Below, one piece after another: positions 14,799 through 38,520 of a DNA stretch of 64,000 nucleotides. The DNA is from Syntrophaceae bacterium (GTDB taxonomy: Bacteria; Desulfobacterota; BSN033; UBA1163), in the NCBI GenBank assembly GCA_013388635.1, contig JACAEX010000080.1:5803-69802 (forward strand), in the 5' to 3' direction. The notes below the pieces were generated by a model that searched no databases, was not told the DNA's origin, and saw only the letters and a program-made list of their open reading frames with translations. Position 1 is the stretch's first letter, and each line of letters opens with the position of its first letter. The translations under genes were made by a program, and so were the position numbers.

Positions 14799-14893
14799 TG
14801 GCGGAAGTGCATGGGAATCGAACCCACCGCGGACATCTTCTGCCCGCCACTGGATTTGAAGTCCAGGAGGCCCACCAGGACCTAACCACTTCC
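14799..14893 (-). tRNA. selC: tRNA-Sec (selenocysteine tRNA, anticodon UCA)
   Basis: The minus-strand read is GGAAGTGGTTAGGTCCTGGTGGGCCTCCTGGACTTCAAATCCAGTGGCGGGCAGAAGATGTCCGCGGTGGGTTCGATTCCCATGCACTTCCGCCA (95 nt). Anticodon stem CTGGA/TCCAG with loop CTTCAAA gives anticodon TCA. Long variable arm (GCGGGCA-GAAGA-TGTCCGC). T-loop TTCGATT with a 5-bp stem. 7-8 bp acceptor stem and an encoded CCA. Confidence 0.8.
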
Positions 14894-34649: not shown

Positions 34650-37001
34650 CTAACTCCTATTCTTGGCGAGAGCGATCCGTAGGACTTCGTCCATATGTTT
34701 GACGGGCAGAAAGTCGATCTTCTTCCGGACGTAGGATGGAAGATCGGTAAGGTCCTTCTTGTTCAGATATGGGATGACAACCTTCTTGATATTGTTTCGC
34801 AAGGCGGCCAGGGCCTTCTCCTTCAGCCCCCCTACCGGCAGGACCCTTCCCCTCAGGGTGATCTCACCCGTCATGGCTACGTCTTTTCGGATGGGAGTAC
34901 CGGTGAGGACGGAGATCAGGGCGACAGCCATGGTAATCCCTGCGGAGGGCCCATCCTTCGGAATAGCCCCGGCAGGGACATGGATATGGATCTCCTTGTT
35001 ATTGAAGGCCTCGGGCTTAATCCGATACGCCTTGCTTTTCGAGCGGGCGTAAGTCAGGGCGGCCTGGGCCGACTCCTTCATCACCTCTCCCAGGTGACCC
35101 GTGAGGATGAGATTGCCCTTGCCCGGAGTGGTGGAGGCCTCCACATGAAGGATTTCACCACCGGTCTCTGTCCAGGCCAGACCCGTGGCCACGCCGATTT
35201 CATTCCGCTTCTGTTCTTCATCGGGTAAGAAGGGGGGAGGGCCCAAAAATCGATGAATATTTCTGGTATGGATGACGGTCTTTTCTTTCTTTCCCTCTGC
35301 CACTTTCCTTGCTACCTTCCGACAGATGGAGGCCAGTTGCCTCTCAAGGTTCCGAAGGCCTGCCTCCTGAGTATATTGAGAGATGATCTGGAGGATCGCC
35401 TTATCGGAGATCTGGAGTTCCTTCGGGCTGATCCCATTCTCCTCCATCTGCCGTGGCAGGAGGAAGGTTCGGGCGATCTTAACTTTTTCGATATCGGTGT
35501 ATCCGGGAAGGTGGATGATCTCCATCCGGTCTCTGAGAGCGCTCGGGATGGGATCGGTCAGGTTCCCTGTCGTGATAAACATGACCTTGGAGAGATCGAA
35601 GGGAACGTTGAGGTAATGGTCGCTGAACGCATAGTTCTGCTCCGGGTCGAGGACCTCCAGAAGGGCAGACGCGGGGTCTCCACGGAAGTCATTCCCGATC
35701 TTGTCCACCTCGTCCATCATAAAGACTGGGTTATTGGTACCGGCCTGTTTGATCGATTGGATGATCCTTCCTGGCATGGCACCGATATAGGTCCGGCGAT
35801 GTCCGCGTATCTCAGCCTCGTCCCGAATTCCGCCGAGGGAGATCCTGACAAATTTCCTGCCCAGCGCTCTGGCGATCGATCTTCCCAGAGAGGTTTTTCC
35901 CACTCCTGGGGGGCCGATGAAGCAGAGGATGGGCCCCTTCATCTTTCTCTTCAATTTGCGAACGCTCAGGAATTCTAAAATGCGTTCTTTCACCTTTTCC
36001 AGGTTGTAATGATCCTCATCCAGGACCTTCTTGGCCTTTCGAATATCGAGGCTGTCGACGGTCGATCTGGACCAGGGCATCTCCACCAGCCAGTCGAGGT
36101 AGGTGCGGACCATGGAGGCCTCTGCCGCATCGGGATGCATCTGCTCCAACCGACTCAGTTCGCGTCGGGCCTCCTTCTCCACCTCTTTTGGCATATTTGC
36201 CTTTTTGATCTTCTGACGAAGTTCTCTCAATTCCTTGGTCCGTTCATCCACCTCTCCGAGTTCACTTCGGATGGCCCTCATCTGCTCTCGGAGAAAGTAT
36301 TCCCTCTGACTTTTTGTGATCTCCTCCTTTGCCTGGGACTGGATCTTCGCCTGCATGGTGAGGACCTGGACCTCTTTTCCGAGAACCTCGTTGAGTGCCC
36401 GAAGTCTCTGGACAGGGTCGAAGATCTCCAGAATCTCTTGGGCCTTCTCCACGGTCAAATCCAAATTGGAGGCAACCAGATCAGCCAATCTTCCGGGATC
36501 GTCGACGCTTTCGAGGACGAACATCAGATCGGGCGAAAGGAGCTTTCCGTAAGAGACGATCCTCTCCAGCTGTTCTTTGACATTCCTCATCAGGGCTTCG
36601 GTCTCAAGGGTGATCTCCGTAATGAAGGGGTCTTTTATATTTTCTAACCTCACAAGAAAGAAAGGGGTGGTCCGGAGGACTTCTTTGATCGAGGCCTTGG
36701 AGAGACCCTGGATGAGGATCTTGACCTTTCCGTCAGGAAGCTTAAGCATCTTCATCACGATGGCCACTGTGCCCACTTGATAGAGGTCTTTCAGGGAGGG
36801 TTCCTCTTCGTTAAGATTTTGTTGGGCCACCAGGAAGATCAGTCGGTCCTTGGAGAGGGCCTCTTCCAGCGCCTTGATCGATTTTTCCCGGCTTATAAAG
36901 AGGGGGAGGACCATATAAGGAAAGACGACGATATCCCTGACGGGAAGGAGAGGAAGTGTTTCAGGAAGGGAGAGCAGGTCTTGTTCAGATCTTTTTTCCA
37001 T
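34650..37001 (-). CDS. lon: ATP-dependent Lon protease
   Basis: 783 aa. LON N-domain, AAA+ motifs ([11 protein letters not shown]) and the proteolytic Ser-Lys dyad region (PKDGPSAGI). Confidence 0.95.
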
Positions 37002-37473
37002 AACGTTCTAATATCTTTTGAATCAGATTGGAGGTCGAGGAGCCTTCTACAAAGGGAAGGAGGATGACCTCTCCACCCGATCCTTCGACCACCTCCCTTC
37101 CCACGATGGCCTCCTTGGTCCAGTCCCCGCCCTTGACGAGAACGTCAGGCTGAAGGGAGGAGATTAGCTCGAGAGGGGTCTTTTCATCAAATATGGTAAT
37201 GTAATCCACACATCCAAGGCTTGAGAGGATCTCTGCCCTCTCCTCCTGAGGAAGGATCGGTCGTTCAGGCCCTTTTAAGCTGCGGACCGAGGCATCGCTG
37301 TTCAACCCAACGACCAGTACATCACCAAGAGATTTGGCACTCTCGAGATACCGAACGTGGCCGAGATGGAGAAGATCGAAACAACCATTGGTGAAGACGA
37401 TTCGTCTTCCTTCTTTCTTGAGATCCTTGACAATCCGGCGAAGATCTTCTCTTGTCTGAATCTTTTCCTTCAA
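36985..37473 (-). CDS. D-glycero-beta-D-manno-heptose 1-phosphate adenylyltransferase-like cytidylyltransferase (RfaE domain II family)
   Basis: 162 aa. [13 protein letters not shown] nucleotidyltransferase motif and [17 protein letters not shown]. The start is TTG and overlaps the first codons of lon. Confidence 0.7.
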
Positions 37474-37526
37474 TGATTTCCTCTATTGAAACCGTATCAG
37501 ATTTAATACCCACAGTCAACGACCTA

Positions 37527-37768
37527 TTGGGGTCAGGTCTTGAAATATCATTTTTTGTTTACCTTTTCCCTCCCTGTCACTTTCCTTACCGCGGTATCGT
37601 CCTTTCTGCTGGATATTTATCCAGACCCGGCCGGTTTACAAATTGTACCAAGTGGCCATGGCCTCCGGGCTATGAAGGGAACCCCCCTGATCCTGATCGT
37701 CTCCGAATATCTTCTACCTCGTAACCAATCTAACAAAGATAAACTTATATTTCAAGACCTGACCCCAA
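37527..37768 (+). mobile_element. MITE-like element: 242 bp bounded by perfect 22-bp terminal inverted repeats
   Basis: TTGGGGTCAGGTCTTGAAATAT at 37527-37548 and its exact reverse complement ATATTTCAAGACCTGACCCCAA at 37747-37768. The roughly 198-bp interior has no convincing coding capacity; tracked ORFs 37452..37724 and 37540..37788 run through the repeats. It sits in the divergent rfaE-like/gntR intergenic region. Confidence 0.5.
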
Positions 37769-37823
37769 CTGGTGAAATTTTGTCTTGACAAGAATAATTA
37801 TCCGTGATACCAGAATCTTTAAA

Positions 37824-37851
37824 ATATATTAAAAATATTTTTTTAATATAT
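37824..37851 (+). promoter_or_regulatory. AT-rich palindrome ATATATTAAAAA-tat-TTTTTTAATATAT upstream of gntR
   Basis: Near-perfect dyad 25 nt upstream of the GntR ATG. It could be a candidate autoregulatory operator or an UP element. A TTGACA sits at about 37785. Confidence 0.3.
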
Positions 37852-37875
37852 CGGAATGGACGTCGGAGATAGGTC

Positions 37876-38520
37876 ATGAAGAGGAACGCCAGGAGCAAGA
37901 AAGCCGTTGTTTACGAGAACCTGAAGAACAGGATTATCAACAACCTCATCAAGCCAGGGGAACCTCTCAATGAGGGCAGCCTTTCAAAAGAGCTTAAAAT
38001 CAGCAAAACCCCGGTCAGGGAGGCACTGCAGCAGCTTGAAAAGGAGGGGTTTGTTGAAAATATCCCCGTAAAGGGAGCTTTCGTCTCCAAGATTTCTGTT
38101 CAGGACATCAGAGAGCTATTCGAGATAAGGGAGATCTTGGAATGTGAGGTGATCAAGCGGGCGGTGAACAAGGTGGATCCAGCCAAGGTCAGACTCCTCA
38201 GGGATAGGTTCGTCTCTTCCGAAAGCGAGAATAGCCGATCTGCTCCGAGTCACTTCAGGTCCGGAGATCAGATCCATACCTTTATTTTTGAGACCTTCGG
38301 GAACCGTCGTTTAATGGAGATTTATAAAAGGCTTCAGGATCATGTGGTCAGAAACCGCATCTTTTTCTTCGATCAATCACATCCGGGGCGGTCCGAAGAG
38401 TCCTTTAAAGAGCACCTGGAGATATTGGATGCCTTAGAGGCAAAAGATCCTTTAAGAGCGGAGCAGGCGGTCAGAAGCCACCTCAGAAACTCCTTAGAAT
38501 ATCTGAAAAAGATCTTATGA
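37876..38520 (+). CDS. GntR-family transcriptional regulator (FCD domain)
   Basis: 214 aa. HTH LSKELKISKTPVREALQQLEKEGFV plus an FCD C-domain. Confidence 0.8.
   Translation: MKRNARSKKAVVYENLKNRIINNLIKPGEPLNEGSLSKELKISKTPVREALQQLEKEGFVENIPVKGAFVSKISVQDIRELFEIREILECEVIKRAVNKVDPAKVRLLRDRFVSSESENSRSAPSHFRSGDQIHTFIFETFGNRRLMEIYKRLQDHVVRNRIFFFDQSHPGRSEESFKEHLEILDALEAKDPLRAEQAVRSHLRNSLEYLKKIL

Follow-up and report, generated by a model that had tools for sequence, protein, structure and literature searches.

What is the 242-bp unit that lies between a cytidylyltransferase-like (rfaE-like) gene and a gntR gene of a Syntrophaceae bacterium, and does it matter for the genes on its two sides? The unit is bounded by a perfect 22-bp inverted repeat. 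An initial annotation had proposed that it is a miniature, non-autonomous element derived from an insertion sequence (IS) or, alternatively, a very long structured RNA. In this work we analysed the window, a stretch of 64,000 nucleotides from contig JACAEX010000080.1 that carries the unit, and compared it with related loci in other genomes. The unit is, on the evidence of its sequence, very probably a TIRtron reduced to a miniature, non-autonomous form. In a TIRtron, terminal inverted repeats (TIRs) starting GGGGTCAGGTCTTGAAAT frame the gene for a TIR-associated tyrosine transposase (TIRYT). TIRtrons are cassettes of approximately 0.9 kb (~920 bp), and TIRYTs are RAYT-like Y1/HUH enzymes with a C-terminal helix-turn-helix (HTH).

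The names were introduced by Di Nocera, De Gregorio & Rocco 2013 (PMC3733652), who designated RAYT-like genes flanked by TIRs as TIRYTs and the corresponding cassettes as TIRtrons. The TIR motif common to TIRYTs was given as GGGGWSAS, and it was noted that TIRs can give rise to dispersed families with monomeric, dimeric and clustered copies (PMC3733652). Quentin et al. 2018 (PMC6006769) assigned 20 of the 26 TIRYTs to TnpA_REP subclass 2.1, whose defining trait is a Bac_DnaA_C, HTH_23 or HTH_28 domain at the C-terminus, and found the TIR motif to be unlike DnaA boxes. In our literature search for TIRYT these two papers alone mentioned TIRYTs, and the search for the TIR sequence itself gave no relevant paper. 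Their texts contain only the 8-nt motif and 26 examples, and neither reports a transposition or cleavage assay. The text on the RAYT groups of Bertels et al. 2017 yields no usable correspondence for mapping TIRYTs onto them.

The perfect TIR pair on which the first annotation was based was re-located exactly, with TTGGGGTCAGGTCTTGAAATAT on the plus strand at one end of the unit and its exact reverse complement at the other (Table 1). No third match to TTGGGGTCAGGTCTTGAAATAT was found anywhere in the 64-kb window at up to 3 mismatches, and 100 dinucleotide-preserving shuffles gave 0 matches to the 22-mer. The inverted repeat extends imperfectly over 39 nt with 85% complementarity (37522-37560 versus 37735-37773); its outer extension (ACCnnTT) is unsupported across 208 ends of the wider family described below. 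In the flanks of these 208 ends the only trends are that T is favoured at -1 and -2 and that positions -3 to -7 are rich in A. A 10-nt flank identity between the window unit and one family member, L071 (AACTGGTGAA), was taken as chance or target preference. The 198 bp between the arms contain no intact gene, in agreement with the earlier view that no credible open reading frame (ORF) is present, and the plus-strand ORFs across the unit (37452-37724 and 37540-37788) are not called as genes on two identical public contigs (L120, L121).

Table 1. Features of the 242-bp unit and its surroundings, in positions of the window; roles are predicted from the sequence.
Feature	Position	Strand	Description
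Whole element	37527..37768	-	242 bp; very probably an internally deleted, non-autonomous TIRtron; 5' end 37768, 3' end 37527
5' TIR (promoter end)	37747..37768	-	Reads TTGGGGTCAGGTCTTGAAATAT on the minus strand, then AAATATAAGTTT
3' TIR (stop-codon end)	37527..37548	+	Reads TTGGGGTCAGGTCTTGAAATAT on the plus strand
Promoter-like site	37727..37755	-	-35 TTGAAA within TIR, 17-nt spacer, TG then -10 TAGATT
Decayed N-terminal coding remnant	37641..37721	-	Approximately residues 22-48; ~80 nt; R*KIFGDDQDQ...WYN versus RDKIFSDDQDREIFL...RYN
C-terminal helix-turn-helix codon remnant	37548..37597	-	DTAVRKVTGREKVNKK versus HYTTVSKVI...K
Cytidylyltransferase-like gene	36985-37473	-	Followed by lon
GntR/FCD regulator	37876-38520	+	Neighbour of the unit
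Probable cytidylyltransferase -35 box	37519-37514	-	TTGACT; left flank conserved up to AGTCAA in relatives
Probable GntR -35 box	37785-37790	+	TTGACA; right flank conserved from TCTTGACAAGAA
AT-rich palindrome	37824-37851		ATATATTAAAAA / TTTTTAATATAT; perfect 12-nt arm pair; conserved in relatives without the element

Within the TIRs, GGGGTCAG at 37529-37536 and its reverse complement at 37759-37766 correspond to the TIRYT motif GGGGWSAS. By its small size, its perfect 22-bp TIRs and its lack of a transposase gene the unit resembles MITEs in general, but it has no target-site duplication. The flanks (cgaccta before TTGGGG and ctggtga after CCCCAA) contain no direct repeat, and none is shared either when the TIR is taken from GGGG (flanks cctatt and aactgg). 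The absence of a duplication is accounted for by HUH transposition, where none is expected. Folded as single-stranded DNA, the two TIRs pair as one long hairpin (-42.9 kcal/mol, z -5.6).

The TIRs of the window unit do not enclose an intact RAYT-like Y1/HUH gene; its ends and its interior are nevertheless homologous to full-length TIRtrons, which argues for descent from such a cassette. Read on the minus strand, the right end continues with AAATATAAGTTT, like full-length 5' ends (L056, L027, L005). At the left end AAAAAATGATAT precedes the TIR on this strand, as in L033 and L083, where the TGA is the stop codon of the transposase. The right end being 5'-like and the left end 3'-like, the ancestral gene ran on the minus strand. 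Using a profile of 11 full-length elements, nhmmer aligned 37767-37741 to profile positions 2-28 (E 5.9e-5) and 37597-37528 to profile positions 866-932 (E 1.6e-7). An internal block (37718-37642, E 0.031) was the top match in the 64 kb outside the two ends of the element, and the three blocks are collinear and all on the minus strand.

Similar results were obtained with a single full-length copy, L070, to which blastn aligned 68 nt of the left end (79% identity, E 1.6e-10) and 46 nt of the right end (E 8.5e-8). A gap-tolerant alignment to this copy gave collinear blocks corresponding to the 5' TIR and leader (35/40), an N-terminal coding piece (24/28), two stretches near the C-terminal third (18/24 and 11/12) and the last 75 nt (57/75). 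After removal of both TIRs and 8 further nt, the interior alone still aligned to L070 positions 113-193 with a score of 27, compared with a mean of 12.8 (sd 1.3, max 18) for shuffles, 0/300 of which reached 27, and with 14 for the antisense control. At the protein level, tblastn of TIRYT against the window found only a 26-aa fragment with 46% identity, containing a stop. The unit has lost the beginning of the gene (start codon and first ~21 codons) as well as ~650 bp of coding sequence, and the residual frame has a stop, so that the window copy cannot encode the enzyme. Two decayed pieces of the gene are recognisable (Table 1), the C-terminal one ending with a TGA stop codon (37550-37548) that overlaps the last base of the TIR. 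The proposal of a non-autonomous miniature element from a transposase-bearing parent fits well with this collinear, sense-oriented gene remnant.

Relatives of the presumed parent were found over a wide taxonomic range. In a scan of one genome per species, the first 20 bases of the TIR (TTGGGGTCAGGTCTTGAAAT) occurred exactly in at least 119 genome stretches, the titles of which name about 14 phylum-level groups. The groups include Thermodesulfobacteriota, Methylomirabilota/Rokubacteria, Bacillota, Atribacterota, Elusimicrobia, Omnitrophica, Acidobacteriota (Thermoanaerobaculia), Bacteroidota (Pedobacter), Chlamydiota (Parachlamydia), Gamma- and Betaproteobacteria, Aerophobetes, Abyssobacteria, Eisenbacteria, Binatia and Chrysiogenales, and the isolates Aliiglaciecola sp. 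CAU 1673 and Desulfoferrobacter suflitae DRH4 are among the carriers. Two types of ends were seen. In the first, the repeat is followed after ~30 nt by ATGGCNCGNCCNCTNCG, encoding MARPLRIEYPGAVYHV; the second, on the opposite strand, closes an ORF (...HYTTVSKVI...*) whose stop codon abuts the repeat.

Inverted pairs of the repeat fall into several size classes. Many are simple TIR hairpins of 42-96 bp, and several of the intermediates of 106-629 bp, among them L087, L056 and L072, carry gene remnants at both ends; deletion derivatives that arose independently are thus common in the family. In the full-length class (869-1004 bp, n = 12), 11 pairs, 911-1004 bp apart, enclose a RAYT-like ORF of 233-300 aa, which usually begins with MARPLRIEYPGAVYHV and ends in the HYTTVSK helix-turn-helix; the remaining pair has no ORF. 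The domains were tested on the L104 protein, which matched Pfam Y1_Tnp (E 1.4e-9) and, weakly, HTH_23 (residues 245-283), and thus combines a Y1 domain (HUH motif, catalytic Tyr) with a C-terminal HTH. It scored 78.8 bits, below the cutoff of 80, against the NCBIfam REP-associated tyrosine transposase (REP_Tyr_transpos), and the motifs NHYHL and RYVVLNP can be read in the translated sequences of L070 and L104. The initial annotation had advised looking for an IS with matching ends, and these full-length elements of ~920 bp share the ends of the unit and carry a transposase gene.

The genes on the two sides of the unit are indeed a minus-strand cytidylyltransferase-like gene and a plus-strand GntR/FCD gene. 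The latter is followed by RraA-like aldolase, Ldh_2 dehydrogenase, aldehyde:ferredoxin oxidoreductase and short-chain dehydrogenase genes. Identical copies of the locus (100% identity) are present in two sequencing-run assemblies (L120, L121), and the organism itself recurs in the assemblies of SRR10095340, SRR10095342 and SRR10095362. The next-nearest GntR proteins are 82-84% identical, and their contigs carry the same divergent cytidylyltransferase/GntR pair with the same downstream genes. The element is absent from the spacer between these two genes in the relatives L122, L124, L125, L126 and L128, and no TIR is found there.

On either side of the element a -35 box is conserved in the relatives, at 7 bp from one of its ends and 16 bp from the other, so that the unit sits, as had been supposed, between divergent promoters. 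The sequence between the two boxes in the relatives is unrelated and variable in length. With the element removed, the boxes would be only 23 bp apart, versus ~70 bp or more in the relatives, and a deletion may therefore also belong to the history of the locus. A base-precise empty site would read ...GTCAACGACCTA joined directly to CTGGTGAAATTTTGTCTTGAC...; the relatives are too diverged in the spacer for this, and the comparison of orthologous spacers suggested earlier thus finds the element lacking while leaving the exact empty site blurred. Since the relatives keep the gene pair and both -35 boxes without the element, the unit is, as judged by sequence comparison, a lineage-specific insertion and not a conserved RNA.

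Two further observations concern this locus. Lying upstream of the GntR start codon and downstream of the probable promoter of this gene, the AT-rich palindrome is a likely operator for the GntR-controlled cluster. The relatives L122-L124 lack the lon gene that the window (34650-37001 compared), L125 and L128 have between their cytidylyltransferase and AIR-synthase-like genes.

A TIRtron remnant may also have been put to use by its host, its promoter driving or boosting the cytidylyltransferase-lon operon, or its 242 bp serving as a spacer that insulates the divergent promoters. The unit contains a promoter-like site (TTGAAA-17-TAGATT), which faces the cytidylyltransferase-lon genes and is the only sigma-70-like site in 37300-38000. 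From this site to the cytidylyltransferase gene the minus strand has no terminator-like site. The arrangement is typical of full-length 5' ends, where a -10-like hexamer (matching the -10 consensus at 4 or more of its 6 positions) occurs 16-17 nt after the TTGAAA of the TIR in 8 of 11 cases, against 1 of 11 for the 3' ends; on these counts the TIR probably also serves the transposase promoter as its -35 box. The site in the window is inherited from the parent element, and may function there. The TIRs have also remained perfect while the interior is heavily decayed, as would suit a unit in use. However, one promoter-like match per 700 bp is not above chance (mean of 0.9 in shuffles), the operon's own conserved -35 box is intact, and the relatives manage without the element. 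We thus regard a present role for the host as unlikely; such a role would be compatible with a TIRtron origin rather than an alternative to it.

In five full-length elements (L019, L028, L040, L070 and L112) the -10-like hexamer ends 6 nt before the transposase ATG, which would make the transcript start at or beside the start codon. The transposase mRNA of these five is therefore a probable leaderless one, as far as can be told from the spacing.

Much less probable is an origin as a classical MITE, with a DDE-type insertion sequence as its parent and cut-and-paste as its mode of transposition. Such an element would equally be small, with perfect TIRs and no coding capacity, but this origin is contradicted by the lack of a target duplication and by the genes of the full-length relatives. 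Among the 12 TIR pairs 869-1004 bp apart, the 11 with an ORF enclose a RAYT-like gene, one of them confirmed as Y1/HUH, and a DDE transposase was found within none, the pair without an ORF included; moreover, the interior of the unit is itself homologous to the Y1 gene. The earlier label of an IS-derived element consequently holds for the miniature derivative and fails for a classical DDE insertion sequence, the parent being a Y1/HUH RAYT-like cassette. With classical bacterial MITEs (e.g. Correia, RUP, ERIC/IS-derived) the unit shares a length below 300 bp, perfect TIRs, the lack of a transposase and an intergenic position near promoters. These MITEs derive from DDE insertion sequences and have target-site duplications, whereas the window unit has none and appears to be HUH-derived.

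When the unit was folded as RNA, as had been recommended, one long TIR stem was obtained, favourable on both strands (z -6.2 and -4.9); this stem provides almost all of the stability, and the centroid structures retain little else. In spite of this fold, a reading as a regulatory RNA (the long structured RNA offered as an alternative in the initial annotation) or as a conserved hairpin acting in cis on the GntR-controlled cluster is the least likely of all, because the unit is absent from relatives with the same genes, promoters and AT-rich palindrome, because the unit region has no Rfam match at gathering score and one chance-level lncRNA match at E<=1, and because a transcript from the internal promoter would exclude the 5' TIR and make the long stem impossible. 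At gathering score the whole window gave a single Rfam match, elsewhere than in the unit, to a selenocysteine tRNA gene (tRNA-Sec, 14803-14893, minus strand, 81.3 bits).

The TIRtron derivation was also weighed against other known systems. The TIR of the window starts with GGGGWSAS (GGGGTCAG), as in published TIRtrons; both ends and the gene fragments are shared with full-length cassettes, in which a RAYT-like Y1/HUH gene that includes a C-terminal helix-turn-helix lies between the TIRs, and TIRs are likewise found solo, as dimers and in clusters. Lacking the gene, the window copy is a derivative rather than a TIRtron proper. A second difference is that the published motif has 8 nt, whereas an end of 18-20 nt is identical here over about 14 phylum-level groups. 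The class of the window element is already published, and the window copy adds a member to it; the identical end across phyla and the duplications of flank plus GGGGTCA described below appear to be absent from the texts of PMC3733652 and PMC6006769.

The REPIN/RAYT system (Bertels & Rainey 2011, PMC3116915) is also based on a non-autonomous, hairpin-capable unit of two inverted repeats, which a related Y1 transposase is presumed to mobilise in trans, with no duplication of the target. REP units are imperfect palindromes with a GTAG or CGTC tag (PMC3733652, PMC3116915). They are GTAG-tagged, lineage-specific and present in hundreds of copies, and REPINs are inherited vertically with a single-copy RAYT. 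In contrast, the 22-mer of the window has neither a GTAG nor a CGTC tag, and its own stem is, by eye, only a 3-bp TCA/TGA pair. The repeat of its family is shared across phyla, the parent cassette has several copies per genome, and the unit holds gene debris; two inverted, tagged, imperfect-palindrome REP units are not found in it. IS200/IS605 elements belong to the same Y1/HUH catalytic superfamily (Pfam Y1_Tnp) and share the working model of single-stranded DNA transposition without target duplication. They differ in having no terminal inverted repeats, a subterminal hairpin at each end and a transposase without a C-terminal helix-turn-helix.

By analogy with IS200/IS605 and RAYT/REPIN, the mobilisation in trans of a TIRtron derivative such as the window unit would have depended on a TIRYT encoded elsewhere. 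Where the DNA is single-stranded, as at a replication fork, pairing of the two TIRs would produce a hairpin, the foot of which the Y1 enzyme would recognise. It would cut the strand via a 5'-phosphotyrosine intermediate and rejoin it at a different position, with no target duplication. This mobilisation in trans and every step of the mechanism are inferred from these analogies. The insertion would have been tolerated because it landed in a neutral spacer between two divergent -35 boxes. With both divergent promoters intact, little effect on the locus is expected, except that the promoter kept by the unit may contribute some transcription toward the cytidylyltransferase-lon genes.

The copy in the window may be a fossil, as neither an intact TIRYT gene nor any TIR other than the two of the unit was found in the 64-kb window and 4.3 kb of extra flank, where one copy of the 242-bp unit is known. 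A metagenome exact-match scan gave 0 matches for the word spanning the deletion junction (TTGGTTACGAGGTAGAAGATATTC) and 0 for the 5' end with its specific extension (GGTCTTGAAATATAAGTTTATC), and thus revealed no sibling copy or close parent.

The wider family is of more interest than the window copy, the end being frozen across phyla while the protein diverges. The 11 full-length TIRYT proteins are pairwise only 43-69% identical, and 18-20 nt of the TIR are identical across the ~14 groups. Each lineage has its own extension of 5-8 nt inside the TIR core, inverted between the two ends (e.g. ...AAATTTGACTTAAG / CTTAAGTCAAATTT...). Several copies with differing flanks were present inside single loci in L033, L100 and L107, which speaks for mobility of the cassettes. 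Some TIRYT ORFs (L010, L028, L114) enter the 3' TIR and end with ...FKT*, the TGA being located within CCTGACCCC, and others terminate at a TGA just inside the TIR, so that the repeat provides stop codons in two frames.

Viruses and plasmids were considered as vehicles of horizontal spread and rejected. Only 4 IMG/VR contigs contain the 18-mer of the TIR, and TIRYT homologues were found on 29 of 72,556 plasmids, every one with less than 60% identity. The best plasmid match (Legionella) has a degenerate TIR-like 3' end, GGCCTGACCC, and lacks a recognisable TIR on its 5' side.

A partial copy of the outer TIR was observed within 40 nt outside the element at 26 of the 208 TIR ends, mostly 4-16 nt away. 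Such copies were seen at L005, L019, L026, L028, L029, L034, L038, L039, L046, L048, L051, L056, L072, L083 and others; they usually read GGGGTCA and sometimes GGGGTCAGGTCTTG. A short flank X is often duplicated alongside, in the form X-GGGGTCA-X-GGGGTCAGGTCTTGAAAT, as in L028 (gaaaccaatGGGGTCAgaaaccaatGGGG), and L046, L005 and L048 show several rounds of this duplication. GGGGTCA lies outside 39 ends, compared with 2 for its reverse complement. These short duplications, which are absent at the window element, suggest that breaking and rejoining take place within the TIR, after its GGGGTCA, which makes this point a candidate cleavage site.

Taken at its widest, the family could be viewed as one horizontally spreading HUH element, comprising the TIRYT cassettes with this end. 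Its 18-20-nt terminus would be frozen by three uses, as recognition site, as -35 box of a probably leaderless promoter and as stop-codon reservoir; the duplications of flank plus GGGGTCA would mark its cleavage point, and the window copy would have moved recently, bearing a promoter that transcribes the cytidylyltransferase-lon operon. We consider this combined reading improbable. In genome annotation, orphan inverted repeats starting GGGGTCAGGTCTTGAAAT in anaerobes and metagenome-assembled genomes (MAGs) may be read as TIRtron debris, and need not be labelled as MITEs or RNAs of unknown kind.

Very short TIR dimers were also observed, in Thermoanaerobaculia (L037, L043, L071, L089) and in Methylomirabilota (L002, L023, L057, L066). 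They comprise a 43-bp hairpin with a 7-nt loop and a 75-76-bp unit with an inner palindrome, GTGACGGCAATTGCCGTCAC. Each type recurs at different sites of one genome or of related genomes, which resembles a REPIN-like amplification of bare ends.
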